From a virus, in the IMG/VR virus record IMGVR_UViG_3300045995_000378: a DNA stretch of 64,000 nt. One strand, written 5' to 3'. Shown here one piece after another: positions 35,994 through 60,980 of this stretch. Each line of letters opens with the position of its first letter. Position 1 is the stretch's first letter. Position numbers and translations under genes: made by a program. A model generated the notes under the pieces. It was not told the origin of the DNA, searched no databases, and worked only from the letters and a program-made list of their open reading frames with translations.

Positions 35994-38900
35994 TATGCCC
36001 TCGTCGCAGGAAGCCCTTCGGTATCCCACTTTGAGACGATGCCAGCCCTATCAGGTGGCAATCCGTCTTGATCCCAGCGGTCGAATATTTTTGTGGCTTT
36101 CAGGGTATTCTTGGATACGGCATATCCAATAGTTTTTAGTTCTTCTTTTAGGTCATTAATGGCCGCGACCATATCGCTGTTATCAAGAAATGCCTTGCTA
36201 CCAGAATTGCTTATTATAGTACTTGGTTGCGTGTATTCAAGTTCAGGCCCTTGTTCTCCTACTACCCGCCATCCACCCGAAAAATCGCCACCAGAAGCGT
36301 ACCCTTGAACCCTTAGAGATTCTATCATTGTATCGCTATTAGGAAGTAATGTTCCAAGAGGAAACCCATTAGGATAAAAAACTTTGTAATAAAGTTCTGT
36401 CAAAGCCGCAACTGTCCATGATTCAGATACCTTACTTGTTGCCACTGTTGAAGTTGTTGCTGCTGTGTCTGATATGGTTGTCGCCGCTGCCGCTGCTGTA
36501 TCAGAAGCAATAGTTGCTGCCGTAGTAGCAGAAGTAGTAGTAGCTGTGGTAGTAGAAGTATTCGCGGCAATCTCCTGCAAAACCGATAATGATGAAGTTT
36601 GAACAACAAGTGATTTCTCTTCGGTTGTAGTAGTGCCGCCAACGAGGTCTTCTAGCTGGGTAAGGGAATTGTAGGTTTTCCAATAGTTCGCTTGATACTC
36701 TTCCCGGGTGGCAAATCCAGAGGTTGAGCTTGCATTTGATGCGATGGTGGATAAATCCAGGTCGCTGACATTGGTAAAGTTTCCCAGTTTAGCTTCGGCC
36801 AAAACAGTTTTCAGAGCAAGGTATGCCGTAGTCGCTTGCGATTCTGCATATGTCAAACCTTCTAATTCCATAGAATCTTTTGCATCCGATATTGCGGAAA
36901 CCATGTCGTCGAGCATGGTATAAAAAGAATCGGCTGTATCCGCAAGAAGCATCATTGAAACATAGGTACTTTGTCCTGCTTCAGTTGTTAAATCCAGACT
37001 TTCCACCAGCGCTTTATATGCCTCTCGTGTAGCTGGCATGGTCACATCCATGCTGGCAAAAACATCGGTCAGGCTACTTAACAAGTAAGTATATTTTTCC
37101 CCATCCGAGAAAAATTTATCGTAGTAACTCGAAACAGCAGTTGTAAGGGTATCAAGATCGCCCGCAAGCGTAATAAGACTTTCGCTGAAGGCTATCAATT
37201 CAACAGTAGTTCCCGAAAAAGCTTGATTTGTCATATCTAGAGCGTTCAAAATAGCATTTTTATCTGATACAATTCTGACGGCTGTTTCAAGCAGACCTTC
37301 ATCCAGTTCTTGATATTGACTTAATATATCCCCAAAAAGAGCCTCAACGGCGGTATCTGCCAAATTAGAGAAGTATTCACTAATAGCCGTATTCATTTCG
37401 TCTGTTGTCATTCCTTGAAGGCTTAATGTAGCAGCCTCAAAAGTATAATTCAAGGCATCTGTTGTACTTGTTCCTAATTCTCCAGCTAAAGAAACAAGGG
37501 TATCGCCCATGCCTGTAAAAACTTTAGTCAATAATTTATTTACTTCAGCAGATAAGGCTATTCCCTCTTGCCATGTTGTTGTGTCTGTTCCTCCACCAAA
37601 AAGCCAACCTTTATCTGTTTCTGTTTTCATGTCTCGGTATCCGCTAAAAGTCTGCGAACCAGCCTTTCCTGCACCAAACGAGATTCCAGAACCAGTTGAT
37701 GTTGTTGTTGAATCACCACCAGCAAACCAATTAGCGATTGAACCAAAGCCACTCATTGATAAATCCGATAAATAGGAAAACACAGGATCAACTATTTTTG
37801 CGATTGTATTACCAAATATCTGAGTGGCTGCATCACTAACAAAATTATCATCAAAAAATTTAGCCGCAGAACCTTCTAAGTTCGTTTCAGCCGCTGCCCC
37901 AAAAGTTGTCAAACCCATTTTCACAATCCCTGTTACTAATCCTGTGATATTTGTGTTCAGGTCTTTCATCTCATTGTATATTCCAGTTAGTTTTGTGTCC
38001 TCCATATCGTAGGTATCTTTAAGGAGTTCATAGGATCTTGATATAGACTCACTCCCGGTCTGATCCGACGCACCAAGAACGGTGCTGGTTCCGGTATATG
38101 TTTCCGTGTTTGCTGTTGAACCTGCTGAACTGCTACTACCAAATCCGCCAGCTACACCAACTGCGCCCAATACACCCGCAACAATAGCCATCATTGCAGC
38201 TATACGTGCAAAAGCTGTGTATGGTTCCCCCTCTCCTTGAGTTAAAATCGCCTCTGCCGCAGTCAATTCCAAGGAGGCCACCTTCTTGGCCATTGCCGCC
38301 CCGTATGCAGCATTTTGGGCTATCATGTTGGCAAGTAAAGCCACATTCTTGGCTGCTTCCATCGCCATTTCAGCGATTAGAATGCCTTTCTTTAAATCAG
38401 CCAATCTCTTGTATTCAGAGGAGTCCGTATCATACATGGTCATCGCGGCATCGAGAACTTTGCCTGTACCCGCAATTACATCATTCTGTTCTTTATGTTT
38501 GAGATCCCAGACTTCTCCAATGAGTTTTAATTGTTCTTGTGCAGCCTTAGCATTAGCAGCGCCAACGTCCATCAGTGCACCAATTTCCATCTGACGAGTT
38601 TTTTCAATCAAATCCATTTTTTTGGTATAATAGGTATCTGCGTACTTGGTAAGATTAGCGTACTGTTTAGCTACATCAGAAGCATCCTTAGCTAATTCCT
38701 CTGCGGTCTGCTGGCCGGTGATACCCGCAATCTTTGTCTTATCTAATTCAGCTTGTGCGGGAGATATCTTACCACTCAATACTTGTAAGTCAATGAGGGC
38801 TTGTTCGGCCTTAGCCTTAGCATTGATACGATTCATCGCACGTTGGTGGTCGGAAAGTGCTAAGTCTTCATTCGCATCCATCATACGTTGATAAGCTTCA

Positions 38901-41462: not shown

Positions 41463-42959
41463 CTACCTCTTCATCTCAGGTTCTTTAAGCATCTCTTCTT
41501 CGATCCGCGCCTGGGCAGTACCTTTGATTGCCAAAAAAGCTGGCCTCATGAATGGTTGCTTCTTTGAATGAGAAGTTCCGAACTCAACAAAAGAATTTGA
41601 CACAACAATACCGCTTGCAATGAAAGAATGAACATCTTTTATAGAAAGATCATATAGGCTTATGTCGCTTTCGCTGGCATCAACAATCTCTTTTTTCACA
41701 ATCTTTCTGGCCTCAAAATAGGTCATATCAACAAAACTATTCATTGAATTATTGCATTGCATATAACGCACACCAGGAATCGGGGACGGATTAATGGATT
41801 TACTGAATCGCCTGTCTGTAAAATGAATATGAACGATATCCCACCCCGGAAGAAGGTTAATGATTTCTTTATCCCTCTCAATATCTATTGCCTGATTTGA
41901 ATGCCAGAATGCACCATCGGCCTCAATAAGCATTTTCTTTTCTGGAATAGCGAAGTCTGCAAAATGATTGCCGACCTTAAATTGACGTTCATATTGCAAG
42001 CCAGTTAATCCAATCCATTCCTCAACCTGCTTTTCGGAACTCGTTTGGAACCCACGTTGAGACATGATTCTGTTGGGATGTGTTTCAGGTCTTGCTACCA
42101 TCCTTGCTGTCGTTACTTCATGCATTAGCTGCCTTGTTGAATCCGTTCTTTTTGAGCCAATATGGGGATTATTTCCTTTCACCCAATATTCATCCCTGCA
42201 TTGCACGGAGCAATATTTCTTCCCTTGGCTATCTTGCCGAGTAAACTCTTTTTGGCAATTAACACAAACTCTTTTCTTCCCTTTCCCCTTATCAGGCGAA
42301 ATCTTTTTAGGACAAAATACATAATCGCCTTCTTGTAATTCACCAGCTTTTACCCAAAATGAAACACCGTCTTTTATGGTTAATATTTTATGGTCATCAG
42401 TTACAGTTAAAGTGTGTTTTCTATCTGATCGCCACTCCACAGTTAGTCGAACAAGGTTCGGTTTTTGCTTCGCAGGAAATGAACTTTTCAAGAGAACTTC
42501 GTGTGGCATCCCGTCTTGTCCAATTACAAGATCACCTTCTTTTATTGAACTTATTGCCTTGAATCCACAGGATGTCTTGATTGTTGTCCCTGGCCCATAA
42601 ATACAAGCGTAAAATCGCGTCGCCGATCCTGCATAAACTCGAATATTCCCTGGCCGGTCGTTCTTCTCAACCTTACGAATAGTATCTCGTAGACTTCCAG
42701 CAGTACGGCCCATCTCTGTTTTTGCGATAAAGTTGACATGCTTCCCACGACCTCTACCAGTTTTGGGAGTGAACATAACATCTCGCATTACGGTCCCATA
42801 GCCTCGATAAGTAGTGCCAATTGCTACATCTTTTTTAGTGGGGCATCGCCTATAAGCATCGGCGGCGACATCGGCCATAACCTTATTCGCACCAATGATA
42901 GCAAGGTCGGCTATGTTCTGGAAGACTTCTTTAATTTTCAGGCCAACTACCCGTGCCAT
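41463..42959 (-). CDS. HK97 gp10-like tail/neck protein interrupted by an intein
   Basis: exteins join to ...TIKTS/SFVEFGTSHSKKQPFMRPAF (gp10-family vEfGT..PflrPAf motif). Confidence 0.6.
   Translation of the reverse strand: MARVVGLKIKEVFQNIADLAIIGANKVMADVAADAYRRCPTKKDVAIGTTYRGYGTVMRDVMFTPKTGRGRGKHVNFIAKTEMGRTAGSLRDTIRKVEKNDRPGNIRVYAGSATRFYACIYGPGTTIKTSCGFKAISSIKEGDLVIGQDGMPHEVLLKSSFPAKQKPNLVRLTVEWRSDRKHTLTVTDDHKILTIKDGVSFWVKAGELQEGDYVFCPKKISPDKGKGKKRVCVNCQKEFTRQDSQGKKYCSVQCRDEYWVKGNNPHIGSKRTDSTRQLMHEVTTARMVARPETHPNRIMSQRGFQTSSEKQVEEWIGLTGLQYERQFKVGNHFADFAIPEKKMLIEADGAFWHSNQAIDIERDKEIINLLPGWDIVHIHFTDRRFSKSINPSPIPGVRYMQCNNSMNSFVDMTYFEARKIVKKEIVDASESDISLYDLSIKDVHSFIASGIVVSNSFVEFGTSHSKKQPFMRPAFLAIKGTAQARIEEEMLKEPEMKR
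41595..42569 (-). mobile_element. intein (~325 aa) with embedded endonuclease domain
   Basis: Cys1 (CGFKAISS), block B TVTDDHKILT (TxxH), blocks F/G LYDLSIKDVHSFIASGIVVSN followed by Ser; internal zinc finger and GNHFADF...IEADGAFWH endonuclease-like motif. Confidence 0.7.
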
Positions 42960-43311: not shown

Positions 43312-43782
43312 CTATATAACTGCACCACTCACAGAGTTTTTTTCAACTTGCTCCTTAACCCCGGAACTCGAAAGAAGCTGCTGGCACCGGGCAAAGAACC
43401 TGTCGAATACCGGAACCTTCATTAAAGCCAACTTATTCTCGCGAGTGCAAATAATAATCTTTCCAGTCTTGGAATCTTTGATCCCCTCAATACCGGTGAT
43501 AGCGAAATCAAAGGCATCGTCACGTTCGGCCCTGGATTCCTCAACTGACAATTCAGCGTAGAAAGATATCCTTTCCATCTGCCGAGTTTTGGGGTTCATA
43601 ACGTGTTCAGCCTGGCGCTTACGTTTGGCTATCCGAACCTCGAAAAACGGTGTCATAGATCGAATCTGAACCCTACCATCTGTATCAGGATCATCAAACA
43701 CCGGCTCCCCGGTTAAGGGGTCTATTTTGGAATTCTGAAAAGGAAACCATTCACCCTGTGTGGCATCAAGATCAATGAACAT
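43312..43782 (-). CDS. putative tail assembly chaperone
   Basis: acidic protein immediately downstream of the major tail protein. Confidence 0.35.
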   Translation of the reverse strand: MFIDLDATQGEWFPFQNSKIDPLTGEPVFDDPDTDGRVQIRSMTPFFEVRIAKRKRQAEHVMNPKTRQMERISFYAELSVEESRAERDDAFDFAITGIEGIKDSKTGKIIICTRENKLALMKVPVFDRFFARCQQLLSSSGVKEQVEKNSVSGAVI

Positions 43783-43872
43783 AACTCACCCATCTGTTCT
43801 TTCTGGCAATCAAGCCCACTAAAGGAGACCATGCACAATTACATGGTCTCCCGAGTTAAGGTACTATTACTA

Positions 43873-44301
43873 CTACGTTCCCGTGCCAACCTGCTCCATT
43901 GCCTGACTGGACACCTGTCCGCTGAAGGAAATGGTGCCGAAGTTATTCCGGGGAAGGGTGACAGCGTTAGCCTTGGTAACGATGATGTACCCACCAGATG
44001 CTACCCGCCAGAACGTCGAGGTATTGGCATAGAGGTAGAGATTGGTCAGGTGCGTACCTGCCTGGCAAAGAGTAGAAAGAGCAAGCTGTCCCGTGGTATC
44101 GGTAGGATCATAGTTGCCATTGAACTCCATCGTCCCTGCTTCGCCTAACTCCGCCACTTCATAAACTTTAGTTCCCGTGTCGCCAAACGCGGTGGGTGCC
44201 GAAGTTACTGGTAGACTAAATCCACTCATTGACCACGACACCATATTGGCTACCACCGTGCTACCATACATAACTTTTCCATTAACTCCTGAAATTTTCA
44301 T
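43873..44301 (-). CDS. major tail protein (gpV/TP901-like N-terminal domain)
   Basis: MKISGVNGKVMYGSTVVANMVSWSMSGFS pattern; GGAGG SD; upstream of chaperone-like genes and the tape measure protein. Confidence 0.5.
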   Translation of the reverse strand: MKISGVNGKVMYGSTVVANMVSWSMSGFSLPVTSAPTAFGDTGTKVYEVAELGEAGTMEFNGNYDPTDTTGQLALSTLCQAGTHLTNLYLYANTSTFWRVASGGYIIVTKANAVTLPRNNFGTISFSGQVSSQAMEQVGTGT

Positions 44302-44334
44302 TTTGAAATCCTCCTTGTTTACCGAGGACAATAA

Positions 44335-44398
44335 AAAATGCCCCGGAAATTGAATTATTACCAATTTCAGCGGGGCATGTGCGCGGCTGACTATCAGA
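44335..44398 (-). terminator. stable hairpin plus T-run on the minus strand, 35 nt upstream of the major tail protein start
   Basis: ATGCCCCG-CT-GAAATTG-loop-CAATTTC-CGGGGCAT followed by TTTTTTATT on the minus strand. Confidence 0.5.
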
Positions 44399-44530
44399 CT
44401 ATGCGTCTTTCGAGGGATAGCCTGAGTATTTGATTGCTATCTTACTTTTTTTCTAAAAAATCTTCAAGTAATTTTACAAACATTTTCACACATCGTACAA
44501 ATATTTGCAATAATTCTTTTGCGTCATCAC

Positions 44531-45877
44531 TCATGTTACTTGTTCCTCGTCAAATGGTGCTGCTGAAGTCATAAATTCTCGTATCTGTTCTAACCGTTCC
44601 TCAGCATCGGGGGATAAGCCTAATGCGGTGGAATCTAATTTCCATTTTGCGCTAAATCGGTCATGAAGTATCTTGTAATTAGCACAAAATTGTTCTGATG
44701 GACTCCACGTAAACGGTCTCATACAATAATGTTCACAAAAACAATCAATTACCCACGATGTTTGGTTAGCTTCCCATGCCTGCAAGCAACAAAGTGTACC
44801 ATAAAGGTCAAATCCAGTTAATGATTCATCGAACCTAAATCCCTTCTTCATATTGACGATTATCACTGCCTCGTCAAAACAACAAGCTTCGTGGGGAAAG
44901 GAATGGATATCGGAGGTATTGAAATAGTCTGGGATTCGCATGTCGTGAAATTTGCCACAGACCAAACCACTTGCATCTTTACCTATAACTCCCGCAACAA
45001 CCCAGGACTCTGGTAACATTTTGATTTGATAACGTAGCTGGTCTACCCAACCAGATCGAAAATACATATCCTGATGTACCAGCACGCAGATATCGGCACT
45101 TTCCAATTCGGCCTTATCTAATAGTATGTTTAACCCTTTGGTAGCCGATTCAGGATTCTGGATAAACATTAGAGGACTATTGATCTGAGATTGGCGGAGT
45201 ACCATTGAAAACCTTTGGGGATTGTTAATCATGCAACCAAATACTACTTTTGGATGATTGTGATCCCATCGTTCTGGTTCGTAATAATTGAATAAGGCAT
45301 AGAGGTCAGGGCGGTAAACTATCTTCTCGCGAGCGTCTTTATAATCTACCGCTAACTCCCCGTCCCAGCAATGAGAGTTTTCATTGTGGAGGTGCCGTTT
45401 GAATAGTATACCTTTCACAAATGACTGTTGGGCGGAGATGCTACCTAATTCTACATTCTTAGGATCAGCAAATAATGTATCGGTGGGGTAATCTCGTGGT
45501 GGCTTTACCCCCTTTGGTATCCGGTGGCCGCGCTTCATGCTAATAATTACAATGTCGTCATCCATCTTGCGGATCTCGTCCATGACATTCGGTTCGTACA
45601 TATCATCATCATCAACTGTTACATAGTAGTCGTCGTCAATGATACGATAATTATTAATGAACTTATTACGCTTGAAGCATCCCGGCATCATTACCTTACA
45701 ATCAGAAGCCTTGCCGGGGATGGCAACAGGATAAATAAAGTCTTCATTGCTAAAATCAACCAGTTCATCCTCAAACATAATCGGATGCAGGATTACCCCC
45801 ATTGGCCGGTAAGCCTCAATGAGTTTATCCTTGTTCTCGGGGCGACTGAATGGGATGATAAGGTGTATTTGGTGCAT
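44531..45877 (-). CDS. two-domain glycosyltransferase-like protein (448 aa)
   Basis: N-terminal IIPFSRPEN (GT2-like), second half with DXD-like acidic motifs. Confidence 0.4.
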   Translation of the reverse strand: MHQIHLIIPFSRPENKDKLIEAYRPMGVILHPIMFEDELVDFSNEDFIYPVAIPGKASDCKVMMPGCFKRNKFINNYRIIDDDYYVTVDDDDMYEPNVMDEIRKMDDDIVIISMKRGHRIPKGVKPPRDYPTDTLFADPKNVELGSISAQQSFVKGILFKRHLHNENSHCWDGELAVDYKDAREKIVYRPDLYALFNYYEPERWDHNHPKVVFGCMINNPQRFSMVLRQSQINSPLMFIQNPESATKGLNILLDKAELESADICVLVHQDMYFRSGWVDQLRYQIKMLPESWVVAGVIGKDASGLVCGKFHDMRIPDYFNTSDIHSFPHEACCFDEAVIIVNMKKGFRFDESLTGFDLYGTLCCLQAWEANQTSWVIDCFCEHYCMRPFTWSPSEQFCANYKILHDRFSAKWKLDSTALGLSPDAEERLEQIREFMTSAAPFDEEQVT

Positions 45878-45889
45878 GTGTTTCCTTTC

Positions 45890-46684
45890 TTACTCGTTAA
45901 TTGCCTGTAATAAGGGCATGTGACATTCAATTCGTTTTCTGATTATGTCGCAATAGGTGGCATCCTTTTCAATCAGGATGTATTTTCTATTCGTGTTTAG
46001 ACAGGCCACACCGGTTGTGCCGCTACCCGCGAAAGGGTCAAGAACCGTGTCGCCTGCGTTGCTCCATGAAAGAATGTGGTCGGTGGCGAGTCGTTCAGGG
46101 AACATGGCCGGATGCTGATAAGCCTCCTTGCACGTCGTTCCTTTTCCGTATCCGGTGCTATATGCCCATATATTTTTACGCTTCCCGAAAGCCGCTATCA
46201 CCACGGGATTCCTTTTCGATGTGCTCCCGTCCGCGTTTCTGACCGTTTTGCTTGATACTGTTTTCCCTCCTTGAGAGTTTGCCCGGTCACTTATCATATA
46301 TGCCGTTTTTGGTTTTCCTTTACTCAACACAAACATATATTCAAAACACGACCAATATCGGTTATGATTAGGCTTCTGGAAAGAATCTTTTTCAAAAATC
46401 ATCGTATCGTGAAGGTTAAAACCAAACTCCTTGAAGTAAAGTGCCTGTTTGAATGATGTCCCCGTTTCGCTCCCGTTGATTGTGGCATCGCCTACTACCC
46501 AGACCACCACACCGCCGTCTTTCGTAACCCTGTAAAGTTCTTTAGCTATCCCCTCAAAATCAAAGGTAGAATTGCCGTTATAGGTTCGCAGATTGTCATA
46601 GGGCGGAGATGTCACCGTCAGGTCAATGGACTTATCGGGCAAAGTCGGCATTATGGTTAAGCAATCACCTTCGTACAGCATCAC
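45890..46684 (-). CDS. DNA methyltransferase (N4/N6 family, pfam01555-like)
   Basis: VTSPPYD and DPFAGSGTT motifs. Confidence 0.8.
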   Translation of the reverse strand: MMLYEGDCLTIMPTLPDKSIDLTVTSPPYDNLRTYNGNSTFDFEGIAKELYRVTKDGGVVVWVVGDATINGSETGTSFKQALYFKEFGFNLHDTMIFEKDSFQKPNHNRYWSCFEYMFVLSKGKPKTAYMISDRANSQGGKTVSSKTVRNADGSTSKRNPVVIAAFGKRKNIWAYSTGYGKGTTCKEAYQHPAMFPERLATDHILSWSNAGDTVLDPFAGSGTTGVACLNTNRKYILIEKDATYCDIIRKRIECHMPLLQAINE

Positions 46685-47373
46685 TTACTCCGTTGGAAGA
46701 GGGCTATGCCACAAGGATTAGTCACATTGGTTGGCGATATCCACTCATTGATAAACTTGTAATCCGCGTGAGTCTTCATCTCCCTTACTACCCTCTCAAC
46801 CTCGCCGCCATTCCACACTGAATCATGGAGGAAGAGGTATCCACCGGGGGCAATCATGGGCGCGAAGTGTACAATATCCATCATTGTCTCCATGTAGGTA
46901 TGCACAGCATCAAGAATGACAAGATCAAAAGGTGCATATTTCTTGGCACGGCGCACCGCGTTCTCGGATTGCGAATCGTCTATGATTTCAATAGTGTCAA
47001 TTTCGCGTAATATTCTACCACGATGGAAACATTGAGGATGGGAGTTATTGTCTACGATTATAATGGTTTTGGGGTGGAAATAGTGATTGAATAAGAACGT
47101 GGTTCCACCAGCTGCCGCGCCTACTTCAAGGTAGGAATTTATCTGCACATTATTGGATAGAAGGTAATGGATACAGGGACCTATTTCGTCTATAACCTGC
47201 TGGCAAAAGTTTCCACCTACGAACGAACCTTCCATCTGACCGAAGGTGTTGAAATCCTCAGTGCCGTGGGAGATTACAAATTGCTGGATTTCTTCAATAG
47301 TGGGGATAACCTGCTTAGTCGGGTTCGGTTTAAGATCGGCAATCTTGATTTTGGTTTTAACTTCTTCTTCCAT
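46681..47373 (-). CDS. class I SAM-dependent O-methyltransferase, Methyltransf_24 (CmcI/TylF-like)
   Basis: LEVGAAAGGTT motif I, IIIVDNN, DLVILDAVHTY (FIDADH-type motif). Confidence 0.55.
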   Translation of the reverse strand: MEEEVKTKIKIADLKPNPTKQVIPTIEEIQQFVISHGTEDFNTFGQMEGSFVGGNFCQQVIDEIGPCIHYLLSNNVQINSYLEVGAAAGGTTFLFNHYFHPKTIIIVDNNSHPQCFHRGRILREIDTIEIIDDSQSENAVRRAKKYAPFDLVILDAVHTYMETMMDIVHFAPMIAPGGYLFLHDSVWNGGEVERVVREMKTHADYKFINEWISPTNVTNPCGIALFQRSK

Positions 47374-47403
47374 TATTGGATAGCTCCTTTCTTTGGTTCA
47401 GGT

Positions 47404-48018
47404 TCAGCCGAATAATCTTAATTGAGCATGGCTGTCATTATTGCTTTTTATTATATTGCACTGATGGCATAAGCACCGCGTATTTCGCATAGAATGTTCT
47501 CCACCATTACTTAATGATATTATATGGTCAAGATTTGGATATAACATATGATTAACATTTTTGAAATCAGGTCTCGTTTTCTTCTTACAAATTTGGCACC
47601 TATATCCATCTCGTTTAAAAACATCAATAGGATTAAATTGTTCATATCCCACGCCAAACTTCGCAGATTTTCTCTTGTAATTTTTATTCCTCATCACAGA
47701 TTTGCCTTGTTCAGTCTGCCAATATTCCTTTTCCCATGCTGATATTTCTTCTTTGTGTGTTAGCCGATAGATTATTGCGGTCTTCTTTATTTCTTCTTTA
47801 TGTGACTGATTATACTCCTTGCTGTACGCTGCTCTTTTTTCTTTATTAGCATCGCGAAACTTTTTCTCTTGAGCTAATCGTTGTTCTCTGGTTGCTGCAC
47901 GATATGCCTTAGCCCTAACAGCAGCCTCTGCTTTATGTTCATGGTAATGTTTTCTACCATATTCCAACCGCTTCGCTATCGTAGCAGCACTATACACCAG
48001 AAAGCACCTCCGCTGCAA
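47404..48018 (-). CDS. HNH endonuclease
   Basis: CQICKKK...NLDHIISLSNGGEHSMRNTRCLCHQCN. Confidence 0.7.
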   Translation of the reverse strand: MQRRCFLVYSAATIAKRLEYGRKHYHEHKAEAAVRAKAYRAATREQRLAQEKKFRDANKEKRAAYSKEYNQSHKEEIKKTAIIYRLTHKEEISAWEKEYWQTEQGKSVMRNKNYKRKSAKFGVGYEQFNPIDVFKRDGYRCQICKKKTRPDFKNVNHMLYPNLDHIISLSNGGEHSMRNTRCLCHQCNIIKSNNDSHAQLRLFG

Positions 48019-48178
48019 TATCCCACTCTTCTATAGCCAACATCATTTCATCAGGTGTCCTTTTCCCAGCCGACCGGAACATTCTCTCGTCGTCGTTGTC
48101 GTCCATTGTCGGGGGGATTTCAATCCACCGGTAGGCTATCCATTCTTTGCGGGTGATGTCATTTAATTTCTTCTCCAT
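47990..48178 (-). CDS. hypothetical protein (62 aa)
   Basis: ORF. Confidence 0.35.
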   Translation of the reverse strand: MEKKLNDITRKEWIAYRWIEIPPTMDDNDDERMFRSAGKRTPDEMMLAIEEWDIAAEVLSGV

Positions 48179-48179
48179 T

Positions 48180-48368
48180 CTATTCCTCTCCTATCCGTCG
48201 CCACTCGTGGCCGTAATATTTAGTAAATCCAAATAGCCTTGGAATTAAATGCCACAAGGGGCGTGATAGCACCATGTGTTTCCCATTCCAGCCCGGAGGG
48301 GGCCACTTGCCACCCGCTCTTAAATCCTCTTCTAAATCATCAGCGTAAATCCTTGCACTCATAAACAT
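48180..48368 (-). CDS. hypothetical protein (62 aa)
   Basis: ORF. Confidence 0.35.
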   Translation of the reverse strand: MFMSARIYADDLEEDLRAGGKWPPPGWNGKHMVLSRPLWHLIPRLFGFTKYYGHEWRRIGEE

Positions 48369-48404
48369 TCCTTTCTTAAATTAAAATAGGCAGGCAGTGC
48401 CTTG

Positions 48405-48695
48405 TTAAATCTTATCTACCGTCCGTCCTTCATTGTTCAAGATAAAAATTGGCGAATGAGCCATAATATCTATTGGCTTTTTATCACCCCTGAATAACGA
48501 AAGCTCCCATATTTGGTTCTGGTTCGCTGCCTCGGTGAAATCTAACACCGATCTTAGGGAAACGACACCAAATTCCGTAACCGCATCTACCATCTTTGAA
48601 CAAAAACGCGCATTCACACTGTACCTATCTACATCACCAAAAACTTCCCACCGTTCTGTTTCTTTTGTTACTCCATGCGAAAATTTGATTATCAT
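48405..48695 (-). CDS. hypothetical protein (96 aa)
   Basis: ORF. Confidence 0.4.
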   Translation of the reverse strand: MIIKFSHGVTKETERWEVFGDVDRYSVNARFCSKMVDAVTEFGVVSLRSVLDFTEAANQNQIWELSLFRGDKKPIDIMAHSPIFILNNEGRTVDKI

Positions 48696-48965
48696 TTTTC
48701 TGCCTCTCTTCTTTTCTATTGAGACTATCTTCGTTCAAATAGATTTTTTTGCCAAATTGTGTCTTCCAGTAGAGAAAGTTGGAATCACTATTTTCTATTT
48801 GAACTGGATGGTGCATTGTCTCTACCTGCCTTTCTGTCTATGGCCTGCCTGCCTATTTATTTTTTACCAGCAAAATGGAATGCTATTCCTTGTCCTATCG
48901 TCAGCCCGACAAAAAACACCATAATCAAATCGCCTATGAATTCGCTTACAGTTATTTCAAGCATC

Positions 48966-49376
48966 TTACGTCCCTTCCCTTCTAAAGATACACACCATCG
49001 ATGGTCTCATTGAACCATTCTTTGAGAAACCAACAAATTTCACCCTTCCTCGCAAGAACCTAATTTCCGCCTTTCCATAAACATAATCATGGAACCATGC
49101 CGTATCAGTATTTACAAAAACCAAGAAGACAATCGTTTTTGCCTCTTTCTTTAATTCCTCATGTGCCTTTACAAGCCATTTTTTAACTTGTGAATAAGGT
49201 GGATTGACAAAAACATTGCCCCGCCATTCCATGTCAAGTCCGTTCACCATTGATTTCAAAGGGCAGGGATCAAGATCAAAATGAAATTCAGAATCAAGCT
49301 GACGATACAACCATTCAGGGGTTGCCCAATCATCCGTTACTTTTGATCCAAATAAGTCTGTTTGATTTTTATTCAC
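48966..49376 (-). CDS. dam: phage-type DNA N6-adenine methyltransferase (Dam, pfam05869-like)
   Basis: DDWATPEWLYRQL...FDLDPCP N-terminus and NPPYS motif. Confidence 0.7.
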   Translation of the reverse strand: MNKNQTDLFGSKVTDDWATPEWLYRQLDSEFHFDLDPCPLKSMVNGLDMEWRGNVFVNPPYSQVKKWLVKAHEELKKEAKTIVFLVFVNTDTAWFHDYVYGKAEIRFLRGRVKFVGFSKNGSMRPSMVCIFRREGT

Positions 49377-49393
49377 TTATTGCAATTCCTTTC

Positions 49394-49807
49394 TTATGCG
49401 GTTTGATAGACGATTTCGTAATCAATTACCCAGTGAAAAAGTAGCGAACTTCCATCTTGCAACGATGAATTATCCTCAACCATTGTAACAAGATTTTGGC
49501 GCTGAAACTGAACACAATTCTTGCCGGTGATGGTTAGCACACAATCGTCAAGTAAGGTAGTTAAATCAGTATACATTGTGGTGATTTCCACTCTACCCGA
49601 TGTCATTGCGGAGAATAGGTCGAACTGGATTAAGACAGACTCGCCGGTTTTCTGGAATACGTTATCAGGCACACCGGAAACTATTGAGTAGACTAAGTAT
49701 GGCATGTCGGCAGTGTCGGCGGTATCTCGGTAAACTCTTCCACCACAGTCGTTATATATATTGGAATCAAGGAGTTTAGCGTCGATTGCTGAGAAGAGGA
49801 TTTGCAT
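49394..49807 (-). CDS. putative neck/tail completion protein
   Basis: position directly downstream of the head-tail adaptor. Confidence 0.3.
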   Translation of the reverse strand: MQILFSAIDAKLLDSNIYNDCGGRVYRDTADTADMPYLVYSIVSGVPDNVFQKTGESVLIQFDLFSAMTSGRVEITTMYTDLTTLLDDCVLTITGKNCVQFQRQNLVTMVEDNSSLQDGSSLLFHWVIDYEIVYQTA

Positions 49808-50121
49808 TATGCTACCTCACGAATCTGGATTTCCATCCACTCATTCTTACCACTTAAATTGATAGGGGGTGCAGCTATGTTTAGTACCGTAACTCCATTC
49901 ACCAATATGCGCCACGTTACCAATATTCTCACAGGCCGGTAACGGATACGAACCTTGCCGGTGATGGTGCCACCTAATGCGAGGGCTTGGATACGCTCAA
50001 CGGATGTTAATGGCCACCACGCGCCCTTAGCAGTGAAGATGGTCTGCCATCCAACCACTCCGTTAGCATCTTTCGTGGGAGCTTGGAATATCAAGTTACG
50101 ATTTAAGTCACCTAAGCGCAT
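49807..50121 (-). CDS. head-tail adaptor/joining protein (Phage_H_T_join-like)
   Basis: 104 aa; LNRNLIFQ...GAWWPLTSVERIQA...GKVRIRYRP...NIAAPPINLSG pattern typical of the family. Confidence 0.55.
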   Translation of the reverse strand: MRLGDLNRNLIFQAPTKDANGVVGWQTIFTAKGAWWPLTSVERIQALALGGTITGKVRIRYRPVRILVTWRILVNGVTVLNIAAPPINLSGKNEWMEIQIREVA

Positions 50122-50131
50122 GATTCAATTC

Positions 50132-51421
50132 CTAAAAGTCAAAGTCCATATCATTCAGCTTACCACACTGGTTCACGAAACGTCCGTAAGTATCACTTTT
50201 AATAACCGTCTGACCTGTAGTCTTGTCGCCCTTATCGGTAAAATTATCCGCACAGTGACATTTAATTGCTCTTTTGAAACTTACAGGGACTTCCGCCGCC
50301 GTAGCCCAACCACAAACATATCGAATTGTAATCGGATTATGAGGATAAAGTTCTCCACTTGGCCACGAACCGCCGTACAGAAGTCCGACAAATCCGCATT
50401 GAGTCCCATTTATCACTACAACATAATCGGTATTTTCAACAAGGGTTGTAACTGTTCCGGCTGAATCTATCCACGTCACGGATGTCACGCTGACAAGATT
50501 TCCCCATGGTAATTTAATCCTATTTCCAGAAGGCCATTTCTTTGGGCAATAATCCCAAACCTGCTGCATGATACGCTTAGAAGTATCGTTTTCAACTGAT
50601 AGTCTACCCGCTGCAATCAATTCGATAAGGTTGGTATCTTCGGAGACATTCGGTTCCCAGACCATGATTGAAGTTCCGAAATCACATGATGCTACGAGTG
50701 TTTTGGCTACAGTTCGGATATATTGCTTAGTGCCGGTATAGGTTTTCTCCTGAATGACCGTATCGTTTAATTCCGTTACCTGCGTAAACGCCCCTGTCGC
50801 CCAATCGGTATAGGGCCCGGCAAGAACATCGGCTTCCTGAATCTTGACATCCACCGTCCCGCTAGCTCCGTTATTCACCGGGGTCAGATAGACGACTGCT
50901 GCACGACCTAAGACATTCACCGCTGTCCCTAAGAGGGTGTATGCAGTCACGACCCCATGAGATCCGGATGCAATAGAGGTGTATAGGGTCGAATCCGTCG
51001 CCATCGTGCCTGAATCTATACCTAATGCTGTGCGAAGTTCTGCAATTGTCACGGGTTCTAAGGTAGGTTCGGTAACACATCTTGTCCCCCCACCTGAAGA
51101 TGATACCGAACTGGGGATCTCAAGAACCGACAAGATTCCATCTAATTCATAAGTCGAAGCAGGAGTGCCATCACCGATAATCGTGCAGGTTAATAAATAA
51201 TTCCGGCCACTTGTACCATTCTGCACCCATCCATATACAATCTTAGTTGAAAAAGTTTGGTTGCCGACCTCCAGAATTGTTGTGGAAACATCAAGACCGG
51301 TAGTTTGATCTATTGCGGTTATGATTGCCGATGCTATGTTTTCAGTGCCTAACGGCAGAGTGAAATCAAAACTAATCGCATAGGCTTCGGAGGGCTGCTT
51401 GGACGAAAATTGAGTTGACAT
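50132..51421 (-). CDS. structural protein with gp6-like head-tail connector motif in the middle
   Basis: VTIAELRTALGIDSGTMATDSTLYTSIASGS resembles the gp6 connector signature; N- and C-terminal extensions. Confidence 0.3.
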   Translation of the reverse strand: MSTQFSSKQPSEAYAISFDFTLPLGTENIASAIITAIDQTTGLDVSTTILEVGNQTFSTKIVYGWVQNGTSGRNYLLTCTIIGDGTPASTYELDGILSVLEIPSSVSSSGGGTRCVTEPTLEPVTIAELRTALGIDSGTMATDSTLYTSIASGSHGVVTAYTLLGTAVNVLGRAAVVYLTPVNNGASGTVDVKIQEADVLAGPYTDWATGAFTQVTELNDTVIQEKTYTGTKQYIRTVAKTLVASCDFGTSIMVWEPNVSEDTNLIELIAAGRLSVENDTSKRIMQQVWDYCPKKWPSGNRIKLPWGNLVSVTSVTWIDSAGTVTTLVENTDYVVVINGTQCGFVGLLYGGSWPSGELYPHNPITIRYVCGWATAAEVPVSFKRAIKCHCADNFTDKGDKTTGQTVIKSDTYGRFVNQCGKLNDMDFDF

Positions 51422-51424
51422 AAT

Positions 51425-54091
51425 TTATGCTCCCGTTATCCGCGAACCGGCAGATATGTCTTTTACCCGTTCCGGCGATGATAACCCGGATGTTGTTGAT
51501 GGACTTATTATATTACTATTTTTAGTTGTTGCAAATATTACTTTTGAATTGAATGGTGATGTCGCTTGATCGGCTGATCGTATCTCCGGGTACGTGCGTG
51601 TGATGTAGAATGTGTCGCGAATAGATGTAAGATCAACATTGCTCAATGTGCCAAACATATCAATGACTAACAATAAAAATTGATCAGTTACAGTGTTGAT
51701 ATCGGATTGGATAGAATTGAACCGGTCAAAAAGAACTGAAAACTGGTCGTAGGTTAATAAAGTTTCGACTCGATTGATTAGATAAACGTCCTGCTGAATC
51801 GTGGGAATATCGGAAATGGTTAATGATTCAGATTGAGATTTGTTTATAACGTCCATCATTATTGTGATTGAATCTTGGATGGTGGACAATTCCTGCTTGA
51901 AAACTCCATAGCTTCCAAATGGAATTGAAATAGTAAAGGTATCGGAAATAGTTGAAGATTCTGATATGAAGGTATTGAATAAATCTAACATTACGGCAAT
52001 TGAATCTTTAAGTGTAGATAGTTCATGTAAAAGTAATTCAGAACTCCTCCACGATGAACTAATAGCAAATGAATCCCCAACCGTAGCGGAATCGGAATAC
52101 GAGATATTGAACAAATTTAACATTGCAGAGAAGGAATCAGACACAGTTGCATAATCTGACTTAATTGCATTATAGGCATCAAATATTATAGATAATCGTT
52201 CGGCCAATGAGGTGCTTTCAGATATTGACTGGATTAGTTGTTCATATTGAATAATTGCGGCATCCGCAGTTGTTGTCATTTCTGATTGATGTTTGACAAT
52301 TAAATCAACCATAATAGTAACAAAGTCGGTAATCGTGGCTTTATCAATATTGCTTAATTCAAATCCACCATATAAAATTGCTATGGTGAGTATATCAGCA
52401 AAAGTTGTGCGGTCTATTAAAGAAACATTGTATTGGTCAAGCATTAAACTAGCTATGTCTTGAATCGTTGAACTATCTAAAGCTGATAAATTCAAAGTAT
52501 CAAGCATTATGGCAAGCGTGTCTCGAATAGTGATTTGCTCTGTATTAGAAATATTATAAATATCCAATTGGAGGGAAAGAATATCTCGCAAGGTTAAAGA
52601 CTCTGACCTACTACTTACCAGAACATCAAACATCACGCTGAAGGTATCTTTAATTGTTGCTGTGTCAACGGAAGCTATTACGAACTGGTCAAACATTACC
52701 AATGCTATATCCCGAAGTGTGGCTTTATCTACTAATAAGGGGACAAAGGCATCTAAAATAATACTAATTACATCTTTGATAGTTGCGCGATCTGATAACG
52801 AAAGGTTAAAATCTACAAGAAATATTTCTAATTCAATTGCCAGAATATCCTTAGCTGTGGCCACTTCTATATTGTTGGCATTAAGAACATCAAGAATAAT
52901 AAATAGGGTGTCCTGGGTAGTTAACCTGTCTATGCCAACAATTATGAGTTTATCTAAAATAAGGGAAAGAACGTCGCTAACGGTAGCACTATCTATGCTT
53001 GATACGTTTAATGTATCAAGGATCAGGCTGAAAATGTCCCGGGTAGTAGCATTGTCTACATTGCTGACATTTAATTTATCGAGGATTGCAATAAAGGTAT
53101 CACTAACTGTAGCATTATCTGCCGCCGACACATTTAATTTATCAAGAATTACAGCCAAAATGTCTTGAGTAGTTGCTATGTCTTGGTTAGAAACATTGAG
53201 AATGTCAAGAATGATAGTCAATGTTTCACGAATGGTTGCTGTATCCGCATTGGCTGTAATTAGTGTATCGAACATTACTGTCAAGATGTCTTGAACAGTA
53301 GTTTTATCAACCTGAGCCGAACAAAGTACATCAAGAATCAATATGAAGATTTCTTTGATTGTTGTTTTTTCAGGCGAAACTCCCGCAGTGCTTTCCTGTA
53401 CAAAAGTGTCACCATCTTCGGTTAATAAAGAAAAGCCGTCTTCCATCAACAACTTTCCGCCCACAACACTAGAATTTATATAAATGTCAACAATAGAAGA
53501 GATTAAAGATAGAGTTGCTGTTTCAGACAAGGTTGCTTGGTCAAGATTGGATTGGTTAATAATATTGAAAAACAAAGTTGCCATATCCCGAATTGTCGCG
53601 ATATCTTGATTTGATGTTACAAGAATATCGAAAAGTAAGGTAGCCACATCTTGGATGGTAAAGTTTTCAGTACCAGATGAATTAAGTTGATCTAAGATTA
53701 GGGTGATAACATCCCGCGTTGTTACCGTGCTTGCGATTTGTGCGTTAAGAGTATCAAGGACGATCGAACTGACATCACTAATAGTAGCAGCATCAATGTT
53801 GTTAGCCTTCATAGCGTCAATGATTATGGAAACTATGTCTTGGACTGTTGCTGAATCTAATCGGGAAAGGGGGATGTCTGTAATGATTGACTGTAGGGAT
53901 ATGGTAATTATTTCCTGAATAGTGGCAAACTCATCATTATTAGCAATGTTAAGTTTATCTAAAATCAAGGTAACAATATCTTGATTCGTAATAGTCTCAT
54001 TATCTGCCACATTCAAGACATTAAGAATGACGGTTTTAATGTCTTGAATGGTTGCTTTCTCTGATTTTGCTACTGCTCGTGCTGTCGTCAT
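51425..54091 (-). CDS. 888-aa protein composed of ~35 degenerate ~20-aa tandem repeats (ATIQDIxTLILDxLNxSNxD); fibrous structural protein?
   Basis: continuous ORF; repeat visible along nearly the whole protein and as ~60-bp periodicity in the DNA. Confidence 0.6.
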   Translation of the reverse strand: MTTARAVAKSEKATIQDIKTVILNVLNVADNETITNQDIVTLILDKLNIANNDEFATIQEIITISLQSIITDIPLSRLDSATVQDIVSIIIDAMKANNIDAATISDVSSIVLDTLNAQIASTVTTRDVITLILDQLNSSGTENFTIQDVATLLFDILVTSNQDIATIRDMATLFFNIINQSNLDQATLSETATLSLISSIVDIYINSSVVGGKLLMEDGFSLLTEDGDTFVQESTAGVSPEKTTIKEIFILILDVLCSAQVDKTTVQDILTVMFDTLITANADTATIRETLTIILDILNVSNQDIATTQDILAVILDKLNVSAADNATVSDTFIAILDKLNVSNVDNATTRDIFSLILDTLNVSSIDSATVSDVLSLILDKLIIVGIDRLTTQDTLFIILDVLNANNIEVATAKDILAIELEIFLVDFNLSLSDRATIKDVISIILDAFVPLLVDKATLRDIALVMFDQFVIASVDTATIKDTFSVMFDVLVSSRSESLTLRDILSLQLDIYNISNTEQITIRDTLAIMLDTLNLSALDSSTIQDIASLMLDQYNVSLIDRTTFADILTIAILYGGFELSNIDKATITDFVTIMVDLIVKHQSEMTTTADAAIIQYEQLIQSISESTSLAERLSIIFDAYNAIKSDYATVSDSFSAMLNLFNISYSDSATVGDSFAISSSWRSSELLLHELSTLKDSIAVMLDLFNTFISESSTISDTFTISIPFGSYGVFKQELSTIQDSITIMMDVINKSQSESLTISDIPTIQQDVYLINRVETLLTYDQFSVLFDRFNSIQSDINTVTDQFLLLVIDMFGTLSNVDLTSIRDTFYITRTYPEIRSADQATSPFNSKVIFATTKNSNIISPSTTSGLSSPERVKDISAGSRITGA

Positions 54092-54092
54092 T

Positions 54093-54428
54093 TCACATCA
54101 TCCGTTCTCGTGATCCAACTTTTTCGGCTACATGAATCCTTAACACACCATCATCAATTGCTATTGGGATGTCCTCTTGGTACTTACAGCCTAGTTCTTT
54201 TAATTCGGCATAATGGGTCTCGTATCCTGACTTACAGAAACGTGGTCTACTCTCATATATCTTACATTTCCCATCTTCAGCTAATTCCTTACAAGGATGA
54301 TTAAAAAACACTGTCTGCCCTATCATCCGGCCACCCCGAACCGCAATGTGCTTTATATCATAAGCAAAACTTGAAACTGGTAAGGTTAAAAATCTGCAAC
54401 ATATCCCACATTTGGCGCAAGTACCCAT
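54093..54428 (-). CDS. YkgJ-like CxxCxxCC zinc/iron-chelating domain protein
   Basis: CAKCGICCRF motif. Confidence 0.5.
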   Translation of the reverse strand: MGTCAKCGICCRFLTLPVSSFAYDIKHIAVRGGRMIGQTVFFNHPCKELAEDGKCKIYESRPRFCKSGYETHYAELKELGCKYQEDIPIAIDDGVLRIHVAEKVGSRERMM

Positions 54429-55027
54429 TATCCTACCATCCCAAATATGTCACCCGTAGTAACATCATCTACAAACCCAAATACATTAGAAGGAATGTTG
54501 CCACCTTCCCAGTCATCGGCTGTAGAATTCAGGTAATAAATGGCGAACCCTGCGCTACCAGATGTAATGTCACTATCAACTGCTGTCACTCGTAATATAC
54601 CATTTTGAAGCAATGTGAGATTAGTTCCTACAACTCGTAATTCCCAAATATCACCAACTACCGCAGTAAGTCCGGAAGTACTTCCAATAGTAGTTTGTGT
54701 CCCGGTAATAAATTTCTGAATTAAAAAAGTGGTTCCATCATCACATCCACCCAGATAACAAGTTTTTTCTGACGCAGACTGTCTGACAATTAGCTTATGA
54801 CTCCATTCCGTCTCACTATTTTGTGCAGTAATTTTTATTTTGCTATATTGATTGTTCTCAAATACATCTAACCCCCAATACGCACCACATTCACCATTAA
54901 CTCCCAAAGAATTTCTTACTACTCCTGATAATTTTTTTAGTGGATCTGATGGGAAAGGATTAGTAACCCAATTTGTGTTTAAAGGATTCTCGTCTCCAAT
55001 AAAAGAATCAATTGCTGGTAATGTCAT
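54428..55027 (-). CDS. tail fibre/receptor-binding-like protein (start trimmed to ATG)
   Basis: track start is a TTG; beta-rich, Thr/Gly-rich. Confidence 0.35.
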   Translation of the reverse strand: MTLPAIDSFIGDENPLNTNWVTNPFPSDPLKKLSGVVRNSLGVNGECGAYWGLDVFENNQYSKIKITAQNSETEWSHKLIVRQSASEKTCYLGGCDDGTTFLIQKFITGTQTTIGSTSGLTAVVGDIWELRVVGTNLTLLQNGILRVTAVDSDITSGSAGFAIYYLNSTADDWEGGNIPSNVFGFVDDVTTGDIFGMVG

Positions 55028-55140
55028 AATTTTATCTCTCGAATAATTGCTTGTTGATAACCATTCTTTAAGATTTTGGCACTTTCTTTTTACTGAACCC
55101 AAAAAACACTAGATAAAAAGCGAATAAAATTACCATCAAA

Positions 55141-55602
55141 TTAAGCTACTACATACTCAAAGGTAATAATCGCCCGTGTTATGGTTCCATCTACGCTTGT
55201 CGTCTTCCAGCCTATGTAATTGCCAGCCGCTATACTGGCGTTCGATAATGCACCATCATCATTTGTATTAGTATCTGCTGCACCAACAATATCAGAACCG
55301 TCCACAACAGCACCGTTTAAACCATTGGAATCATATTCATACATCTGACCTGTAATAGAAATTCCACCTATACACAAAACATGAATAGCGGTAATTGTTA
55401 AATTTACAGGCGCACGCCATAAAGGACTATCTGCCGTAGCGGTTGGAGAAGTAATTACAAAGGATTTGGATAGCGCCAATGCTTTACTGAGACTAGCTAC
55501 GGACACCTTCTTGTTTGCGCCCCCAGCATCAACTTCAACTAACATATTAGTCGAAACGAGAGCGGTATCTTCAGTTAATTGACTTATTTTTTGATCAGCC
55601 AT
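55141..55602 (-). CDS. tail fibre N-terminal domain protein
   Basis: MADQKISQLTE N-terminus. Confidence 0.35.
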   Translation of the reverse strand: MADQKISQLTEDTALVSTNMLVEVDAGGANKKVSVASLSKALALSKSFVITSPTATADSPLWRAPVNLTITAIHVLCIGGISITGQMYEYDSNGLNGAVVDGSDIVGAADTNTNDDGALSNASIAAGNYIGWKTTSVDGTITRAIITFEYVVA

Positions 55603-57530: not shown

Positions 57531-57754
57531 TAGTTCGACCGCCCTTCTACCAATGCTGGCCGCTGTCCAGAGTAAAGGGGATCTGGTTGAGCATCCTTAA
57601 CCATAGCACCCATCTCTTTGACAAACTCAACCATCGTTTCAATTTTACAATGAACAGACAGGTCGATATTATCATTCTTGTGGATACCAATGATTATCTC
57701 CGCATCCTCACCTTCGGCCTGTCTAATCTTGTCTAACCATTGCTCTGATGTCAT
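57530..57754 (-). CDS. hypothetical protein (74 aa)
   Basis: ORF, ATGA-type coupling. Confidence 0.4.
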   Translation of the reverse strand: MTSEQWLDKIRQAEGEDAEIIIGIHKNDNIDLSVHCKIETMVEFVKEMGAMVKDAQPDPLYSGQRPALVEGRSN

Positions 57755-57767
57755 AAACTCCCTTTCT

Positions 57768-58367: not shown

Positions 58368-58393
58368 GTAGTATTTATAACTACTTGAAATTA

Positions 58394-59866: not shown

Positions 59867-59879
59867 TTCGTGGCTCCTG

Positions 59880-60268: not shown

Positions 60269-60276
60269 ATTCCCCC

Positions 60277-60468: not shown

Positions 60469-60479
60469 AGCACACCTCC

Positions 60480-60923: not shown

Positions 60924-60980
60924 TTACTTCACCTCGTCCCCGACCTTTTTTCCCATATGGTAAAAAGGGTAATCATTACT

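Follow-up and report, generated by a model that had tools for sequence, protein, structure and literature searches.

A Methyltransf_24/CmcI-type O-methyltransferase and a putative two-domain glycosyltransferase (GT) of 448 residues, encoded just upstream of the tail-tube gene in a stretch of viral DNA from IMG/VR record IMGVR_UViG_3300045995_000378, appear to form a conserved, modular, glycan-building cassette. Gene content and synteny point to a large clade of uncultivated siphoviruses carrying it, with more than 100 related environmental contigs, and judged by gene order no structural gene is linked to the tail-tube gene more tightly than the GT. We hold with roughly even confidence that the cassette O-glycosylates the tail tube with methylated sugars, the C-terminal GT domain priming, the N-terminal domain extending and the methyltransferase capping a sugar hydroxyl. 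The whole stretch analyzed (64 kb, hereafter the window) has a G+C content (GC) of 43% and contains about 85 open reading frames (ORFs), many of them without a family match. Every gene from 41 to 60 kb is on the minus strand; the window edge truncates the capsid gene, and the genome continues past position 64000. The region around the cassette is listed below from its upstream end, with E-values given after the family names.

50132-51421, minus strand: head-tail adaptor (phrog_442)
49807-50121, minus strand: head completion protein, Phage_HCP (PF05521 6e-12), syntenic in relatives, the upstream conserved border of the module
49394-49807, minus strand: tail terminator or tail completion protein (PF11367 9.5e-8; phrog_176 'tail terminator' 2.5e-10)
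48966-49376, minus strand: phage Dam (PF05869 3e-23; NPPY at residue 58)
48405-48695, minus strand: 96-aa ORF, no profile match
48180-48368, minus strand: 62-aa ORF, no profile match
47990-48178, minus strand: s62b, a small acidic 62-aa protein with tblastn matches in most loci
47404-48018, minus strand: HNH endonuclease (PF01844 3e-6; phrog_8660 9e-20)
46681-47373, minus strand: Methyltransf_24/CmcI-type O-methyltransferase (PF13578 4.7e-9; PF04989)
45890-46684, minus strand: N6_N4 DNA methyltransferase, beta-class (PF01555 1.6e-42; SPPY at residue 26, FAGSG at residue 218)
44531-45877, minus strand: 448-aa GT with two predicted GT-A domains, assigned by structure; no Pfam, PHROG or NCBIfam match
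44442-44534, minus strand: 30-aa micro-ORF MSDDAKELLQIFVRCVKMFVKLLEDFLEKK, which overlaps the GT stop codon (ATGA), assigned by peptide conservation
44338-44378, minus strand: terminator-like hairpin followed by a U-run (RNA fold -41 kcal/mol, z -3.35)
43873-44301, minus strand: tail-tube (major tail) protein of 142 aa, preceded by a strong AAGGAGG site

The five genes named here by a previous sequence-only reading (HNH endonuclease, O-methyltransferase, DNA methyltransferase, glycosyltransferase and Dam) are all present on the minus strand with the coordinates claimed for them, and most of the names proved correct. What it had called the adaptor at 49807 is actually the head completion protein (PF05521), the adaptor being the gene at 50132-51421 (phrog_442).

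Contigs with homologues of the 448-aa protein were fetched and all window proteins were mapped onto 84 loci. The gene order is near-constant and runs adaptor, head completion protein, terminator, s62b, variable slot, GT, tail tube, 156-aa, 115-aa and 157-aa proteins, and tape measure; s62b was found to precede the cassette in most relatives by tblastn, and in practically every one of the 84 loci the terminator and the tail-tube gene have a GT homologue between them. The same order is seen in three contigs that had been binned into unrelated metagenome-assembled genomes (MAGs; L085, L086 and L087). In L001, a close relative, the methyltransferase and GT genes abut and are 83% and 78% identical to those of the window. 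When loci were collected through the tail-tube protein, all 28 whose upstream sequence reached 1.5 kb or more had a GT homologue within 1.6 kb upstream; many of these are contigs already found via the GT, and the four new informative loci also carry it. Because the order is fixed in relatives, also when these are sampled via the tail tube, the methyltransferase and the GT are core to the lineage. Megablast of positions 43800-50200 against 50,697 phage records returned no isolate relative. We take the host to be bacterial because the window encodes a phage lysozyme and L001 a GH108 protein. A host assignment through the MAG bins was tried and rejected: the bins (Syntrophaceae; Ca. Methanoperedens, with a 94% identical tail tube; Patescibacteria) contradict each other, and the assignments of L085-L087 are probably binning artefacts.

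Searches of the 448-aa protein in Pfam, PHROG and NCBIfam, and by tblastn in the same 50,697 phage records, gave no match. It has 369 metagenomic homologues, all without names, some of which are fused to Glyco_transf_92 or methyltransferase domains. With no match in the family libraries, the two-domain GT of the sequence-only reading could not be verified from sequence families, and the protein falls in no curated GT-A family of the Pfam/CAZy type; the assignment gained structural support, including a full-length Foldseek alignment. An AlphaFold2 (AF2) model built from the homologue alignment is confident (predicted local distance difference test, pLDDT, 87), and both of its halves show a Rossmann-like alpha/beta/alpha GT-A fold. 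In Foldseek searches against viral models nearly the full 448-aa length aligns to multi-GT-A or multi-domain GTs, the best viral match being a glycosyltransferase of Gordonia phage Sixama (E 2.9e-13, 516 columns). At the profile level, 43 homologues matched only majastridin (PDB 2nxv/2qgi; 5e-8, residues 261-383), and this sequence and fold homology over the catalytic half makes the C-terminal half majastridin-like. Structure and profile searches of 44531-45877 and 46681-47373 thus returned a GT-A fold and O-methyltransferase families, respectively, as the earlier naming of the two genes had foreseen.

The N-terminal domain (N-domain, residues 1-205) has DDDD at positions 89-92, right after strand 84-87, with D90/D91 invariant among 43 sequences. 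In the majastridin-like C-terminal domain (C-domain, residues about 210-420) the invariant residues of the same set are H268-x-D270, following strand 263-267, and H383. Both domains therefore have a GT-A motif of the DxD type, which in the C-domain takes the HxD form H268-Q-D270. The invariance of D90/D91, H268, D270 and H383 suggests that the enzymes are functional. Fourteen N-domains compared with sequence families had no match at E of 5 or less, and the N-domain profile gave only chance matches in the PDB. Probabilities in hhalign stayed under 10% when the N- and C-domains and the additional N-terminal domains seen in relatives (GT2/GT92 or others) were compared, so that common ancestry of these GT domains is not demonstrable at the sequence level. 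Transmembrane (TM) segments were found in none of the cassette proteins (maximal 19-residue Kyte-Doolittle hydropathy 1.1-1.6). Majastridin itself is a cellular protein with one domain, encoded as ORF6 in the atp operon of Rhodobacter blasticus, whereas in this phage the domain is joined to other GT-A domains within a tail module.

The assignment of 46681-47373 as an O-methyltransferase is well supported by its family matches. It scores above the gathering cut-offs of PF13578 (37.5 bits, cut-off 26.3) and PF04989 (25.8 bits, cut-off 23.2), and a profile of 27 family members matched in the PDB the tRNA 5-hydroxyuridine O-methyltransferase TrmR (1.7e-6), the sugar O-methyltransferase MycE (1.1e-5) and enzymes of the CCoAOMT type. 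Lined up with MycE, the invariant residues D150, D155 and H183-D184 fall on its 'DDGSH' and 'ED' segments, where such enzymes bind metal, and the enzyme is probably cation-dependent. No (D/N/S)PP(Y/F) motif was found in it. With the MycE/MycF/TylF, CmcI and CCoAOMT/TrmR enzymes it shares the Pfam match and the acidic and His positions at the metal ligands, but the similarity to the MycE, TrmR and CCoAOMT enzymes is low (E 1e-5 to 1e-6) and NCBIfam equivalog scores are far under their cut-offs. As a core partner of the GT, it is by its context probably a glycan O-methylase.

The content of the slot upstream of the tail-tube gene was surveyed in the 57 loci that have both terminator and tail tube, some of them redundant assemblies of a single phage. 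The majastridin-like C-domain occurs in a protein of every one of the 57, in the following architectures.

15 of 57 loci: N- and C-domains, 418-467 aa
14 of 57 loci: N- and C-domains plus a further N-terminal domain, 672-721 aa
22 of 57 loci: C-domain fused to unrelated N-terminal regions, 455-628 aa
6 of 57 loci: C-domain alone, 222-276 aa

Part of the 672-721-aa class has a Glyco_tranf_2_4 or Glyco_transf_92 match in the extra N-terminal domain. In 28 of the 57 loci the gene immediately before the GT belongs to the Methyltransf_24 family. It can be replaced by a methyltransferase-polysaccharide deacetylase fusion (L012, 7535-8578) or by a radical SAM/SPASM protein (L079, 1505-2266; L082, 1700-2461), and a Methyltransf_25/11 enzyme (L011) and homing endonucleases (NUMOD3, HNH_3) are other occupants of the slot in relatives. 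An invariant enzyme, an invariant structural gene and shuffled accessory carbohydrate enzymes are what a glycan-diversification locus would be expected to look like.

The sequence-only reading had taken all of 44531-49376 as one mosaic insertion. Synteny with relatives leaves the methyltransferase and the GT in the core and reveals three small independent insertions inside the conserved module, which account for Dam with two ORFs, the HNH gene and the DNA methyltransferase. Their boundaries were set by DNA alignment to L001. The first (48180-49376, about 1.19 kb, GC 0.38-0.40) lies between the terminator and s62b and carries Dam and the 96-aa and 62-aa ORFs; it is absent in L001 and L086, homology to L001 skipping from the terminator to 48190, and L198 has a different Dam in the same slot. 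The second is about 0.59 kb (GC 0.37) with the HNH gene between s62b and the methyltransferase; its site is empty in L001 and L086, and in the window it has replaced the 3' end of s62b. The third (0.80 kb) places the DNA methyltransferase exactly between the methyltransferase and the GT, which are separated by 817 nucleotides here versus 17 in L001. The GC of Dam, the adjoining gap and HNH is 0.37-0.40 versus 0.42-0.51 for their neighbours. Both inserted DNA methyltransferases are of the exocyclic-amino type, with NPPY in Dam (PF05869) and SPPY and FAGSG in the N6_N4 enzyme (PF01555); the SPPY motif is typical of N4-cytosine enzymes. The HNH motif and the presence/absence polymorphism at a conserved site indicate that 47404-48018 is probably of the homing type. 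Absence from the close relatives L001 and L086 and entry at separate junctions speak against the idea that the DNA methyltransferases and HNH share one pathway with the cassette; these window-specific genes appear to be unrelated selfish or anti-restriction genes that landed recently inside it. HNH and DNA methyltransferase genes repeatedly enter gene junctions of conserved phage operons, and a core module can in this way mimic a mosaic island. Further DNA methyltransferases are encoded at 12315-13061 (minus strand, N6_N4 with SPPY) and 26189-26755 (minus strand, MT-A70 with DPPW); their appearance suggests independent anti-restriction genes rather than pathway members. With 45890-46684 and 48966-49376 this makes four in about 64 kb, an unusually heavy anti-restriction load.

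The acceptor that we propose is the 142-aa tail-tube protein (pLDDT of its model 77), which is 66-94% identical among the best 120 of its 299 homologues. It ends here in MEQVGTGT, and a C-terminal G-[S/T] is kept in nearly all relatives down to 40% identity (GTGT, GTGS, GVGT, VGS, YGT, AGT). A sequon common to the capsid and the tail tube was considered and rejected, the capsid ending in FVVLAAR without G-[S/T]. Late in infection, the soluble 448-aa enzyme would use host nucleotide sugars. Its majastridin-like C-domain would put the first sugar on a virion protein, the likeliest being the tail-tube subunit, possibly at the conserved C-terminal G-[S/T]; the N-terminal GT-A domain would lengthen the glycan and the Methyltransf_24 enzyme would O-methylate a sugar hydroxyl. 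Elsewhere in the clade these parts would be exchanged for, or supplemented by, further GT domains and tailoring enzymes, making the locus a hot spot of glycan diversification, while Dam, the SPPY-type DNA methyltransferase and HNH would act on DNA, outside the glycan pathway. From the observed gene identities, folds, motifs, synteny and insertion boundaries we infer which protein accepts the sugars, which sugars these are, in what order the enzymes act and that a glycan exists at all. A stronger version, in which the majastridin-like GT-A domain is a protein O-glycosyltransferase that primes every tail-tube C-terminal G-[S/T] and the variable enzymes build lineage-specific, partly methylated glycans, is possible but doubtful.

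Two small elements separate the GT from the tail-tube gene. The 30-aa peptide follows the GT directly in 21 loci (about 14 distinct contigs) and across different GT architectures, and is predicted to form an amphipathic helix. The hairpin has a 16-bp stem followed by AUUUUUUAUU and lies about 30 nucleotides before the AAGGAGG ribosome-binding site of the tail-tube gene (region fold z -3.35). Its role may be that of a terminator or attenuator parting the neck/GT transcript from the tail-tube gene, or of an mRNA-stabilizing end. A promoter and terminator consensus scan of 43700-50300 gave sites not above those of shuffled sequence and missed the hairpin at 44338-44378.

Several observations weigh against tail-tube glycosylation. 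The acceptor was chosen solely by gene adjacency, and a terminator-like hairpin stands between the cassette and the tail-tube gene. The conservation of the C-terminal G-[S/T] could be structural, and the C-termini of capsid (FVVLAAR) and tail tube have no common motif. Top structural neighbours such as TarP and RmlT act on cell-wall polymers, not proteins, and for majastridin, the closest solved relative, we know of no demonstrated activity. The GT-A assignment of the N-domain depends on one AF2 model and on full-length Foldseek alignments without per-domain coordinates. Nucleotide-sugar synthesis genes are not encoded in the window. Finally, one locus (L068) has the N-domain, without detectable C-domain or tail-tube homologue.

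We weighed other roles for the cassette. It might modify the host envelope (wall teichoic acid, lipopolysaccharide/O-antigen or capsule) in the manner of prophage TarP or Gtr systems, with the benefit of blocking superinfection or of keeping progeny from adsorbing to debris, and TarP and RmlT are indeed structural neighbours of the 448-aa enzyme. The genes, however, belong to a late morphogenesis operon, on the same strand and with overlapping or abutting junctions, and not to a lysogeny or moron locus; the tail-tube linkage holds in 28 of 28 loci; and the slot diversifies in the manner of a virion-surface trait. TM segments and GtrA/GtrB-like partners are lacking, so that the cassette does not match a Gtr-type lysogeny module (GtrA/GtrB/GtrV), and we consider an envelope target unlikely. 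A different acceptor, namely the capsid, the tape measure, the 156-aa protein, s62b, the 30-aa peptide or a small molecule, would make the tail-tube adjacency historical. No physical tie of the enzyme to the tail tube is apparent, two small conserved proteins (s62b and the 30-aa peptide) flank the cassette, a second cluster in the window has another Ser/Thr-rich protein, P170, as its conserved partner, and capsid and tail tube are both modified in mycobacteriophages according to a passage of PMC12619734. The tail tube is nevertheless the only large structural gene with invariant adjacency, the capsid-to-adaptor region and the distal tail genes varying freely, which leaves a different acceptor rather improbable.

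The sequence-only reading had also offered DNA hypermodification, in which the GTs would add sugars to hydroxymethylated bases, the O-methyltransferase would tailor these and the DNA methyltransferases would join in. Phage GT-A enzymes that glycosylate 5-hydroxymethylcytosine exist, with TarP as top PDB neighbour and with sequential GTs (10.1101/2023.12.21.572611), and the window is rich in DNA methyltransferases, with four. These are nonetheless all of exocyclic-amino types (NPPY, SPPY, DPPW) and consequently unable to supply a hydroxymethyl acceptor, they are missing from relatives that keep the cassette, and the cassette sits in the tail module, not the replication module. Pfam searches of the about 85 ORFs found no C5-methyltransferase, 5mYOX/TET or ThyS-like family in the window, beyond which the genome extends. 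Because no ThyS-like hydroxymethylase, TET or C5-methyltransferase was found among the ORFs of the window, many of which have no family match, DNA hypermodification did not hold up as an explanation and we regard it as highly unlikely. On balance the comparative genomic data strengthen the glycosylation hypothesis and weaken the DNA-hypermodification one. The suggestion that virion proteins are glycosylated fits the linkage of GT and tail tube, the carbohydrate-type enzymes of the slot and the precedent of cluster O mycobacteriophages, and stands as a candidate.

To our knowledge, a few mycobacteriophages are the only phages with demonstrated glycosylation of the virion, and the researchers concerned reportedly saw little evidence of it elsewhere. 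The locus described here is a concrete candidate outside mycobacteriophages because of its tight tail-tube linkage, its presence on more than 100 environmental contigs and a domain swapping like that of surface-glycan loci. Passages of PMC11600133, PMC12363180 and PMC12619734, all citing Freeman 2023, name virion O-glycosylation systems in Che8, Corndog/cluster O and Myrna. In cluster O an O-methyltransferase gene is followed by three GT genes and capsid and tail tube are modified (a passage of PMC11600133, citing Freeman 2023), and the glycans of mycobacteriophages are placed at the C-termini of capsid and tail-tube subunits (a passage of PMC12619734, citing Freeman 2023). As in these phages, a siphovirus encodes a predicted GT within its virion structural genes. 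The 448-aa protein has its best viral fold match in an actinophage GT, that of Gordonia phage Sixama. As in cluster O, the O-methyltransferase is directly upstream of the GT, the two being parted here only by the inserted DNA methyltransferase. Unlike in mycobacteriophages, the GT domains are without a Pfam family, occur in fused and shuffled form throughout a large environmental clade and keep a fixed position between terminator and tail tube; the GC is also lower, at 43% for the window versus 61.3% for one F1 mycobacteriophage (PMC11256854).

The GT-A/GT-B enzymes of phage DNA sugar-hypermodification cluster with a C5-methyltransferase plus 5mYOX/TET, or else with ThyS-like hydroxymethylases (10.1101/2023.12.21.572611). 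Sequential GT-A domains with a DDD motif, an environmental phage and nearby DNA methyltransferases are common to those clusters and the cassette. The cassette differs from them in having no C5-methyltransferase, 5mYOX or ThyS, in that its neighbouring DNA methyltransferases are recent insertions and in its structural, not replicative, context. The system seems best described as a form of phage virion glycosylation whose GT families go unrecognized by present profile libraries. If this is true, glycan-coated tails would be a widespread and fast-evolving phage trait outside Actinobacteria phages, and an ecological trait rather than a curiosity of host immunity. It would also define two GT-A families that current profile libraries miss, give majastridin-type proteins a first function and offer a simple means, of two or three genes, to decorate a small self-assembling protein with methylated O-glycans.

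A second cluster lies between the capsid and adaptor genes and comprises the following genes.

58394-58906, minus strand: P170, a beta-type protein rich in Ser/Thr/Asn, conserved as the leading gene of a trio
57768-58367, minus strand: HNH_3 endonuclease (PF13392 2e-13), between P170 and the methyltransferase
56409-57530, minus strand: 373-aa double methyltransferase (PF13578 1e-16, PF04989, PF13489)
55603-56409, minus strand: GT268, a 268-aa probable GT-A enzyme (phrog_34859 'glycosyltransferase' 2.8e-5)

The recurrence of the order HNH, methyltransferase, GT at 55603-58367 pointed out by the sequence-only reading is real, but this cluster is a separate, independently mobile module. GT268 has 297 homologues, and the census of the cluster covered 83 loci (L088-L170) on viral contigs of otherwise different genome context; the module is absent from L001 and L003. 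The N-terminal half of the 373-aa methyltransferase has a homologue in 81 of the 83 loci (within 1.5 kb upstream of the GT in 77), and P170 stands in front of the methyltransferase in 76. The N-terminal class I domain of the methyltransferase accompanies GT268 throughout, and the C-terminal Methyltransf_24/CmcI domain is confined to the closest relatives. Besides the window, eight of the 83 related loci have an HNH gene at the junction of P170 and the methyltransferase. GT268 is weakly GT-A-like, its profile matching STIV A197 at 0.035 with an invariant D90-H91-D92 aligned to the D-E-D of A197; the similarity to STIV A197 and to PBCV-1-type capsid-glycosylating GT-A enzymes is at the fold level only, and these belong to viruses of other realms. 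P170 has conserved N-x-T motifs and may be an acceptor or a fibre component; profile searches with 23 members against the PDB and Pfam gave matches at noise level only (Gp80 fibre 0.0013, gp37_C 0.043), and no family could be assigned to it. In relatives the trio has as neighbours fibre-like proteins (Beta_helix, Gly_rich) and sugar-nucleotide genes (RmlD-like, NeuB, CMP-sugar synthetase, MptE/Maf-like), which point to glycan chemistry on virion appendages. One 67-kb contig (L090; GCA_041643255.1, JBGGGX010000064.1, 1-16000) encodes NeuB, a CTP_transf_3 CMP-sugar synthetase, CmcI and Methyltransf_24 proteins together with a GT268 homologue, and an MptE/Maf-like protein beside a 1488-aa fibre-like protein. 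This gene set suggests a phage pathway for nonulosonic-acid glycosylation.

The capsid-to-adaptor interval is hypervariable, measuring 12.4 kb in the window (51422-63831) versus about 5.5 kb in L001 (1616-7168) and L003 (1347-6731), with almost no genes common to the window and these two relatives. A CxxCxxCC protein at 54093-54428 of the window recurs in L001 and L091. Directly upstream of the adaptor lies an 888-aa ORF (51425-54091, minus strand) of low GC (0.35-0.37), for which PDB, Pfam, PHROG and NCBIfam searches gave no match. It has internal repeats and, by tblastn, similarity to large proteins beside GT268 homologues in L089-L091 and L093, and may be a neck or head fibre. The adaptor carries an N-terminal extension whose residues 8-81 resemble Gp77, the fibre-tail adaptor of podophage GP4 (PF23148 3.5e-5, just under the cut-off); the first 115 or so residues of the adaptor are absent in most relatives and present only in L044, L063 and L086.

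Downstream of the tail-tube gene and just upstream of the tape measure, a 498-aa ORF (41463-42959, minus strand) contains an intein with an endonuclease (Intein_splicing, Hint, DUF559/Vsr-like). A 157-aa protein that is contiguous in L001, L086 and L183 corresponds to its residues 3-125 and 442-497, indicating that the intein host gene encodes a small tail protein in the position of a tail-assembly chaperone. Directly downstream of the tape measure is a paralogous gene pair (314 and 478 aa; 33649-36029, minus strand), both members belonging to phrog_6278, of unknown function; the duplicated pair is also found in L026 and L057. A lone tRNA-Trp (CCA) is located at 20259-20335 (minus strand) among replication and recombination genes.

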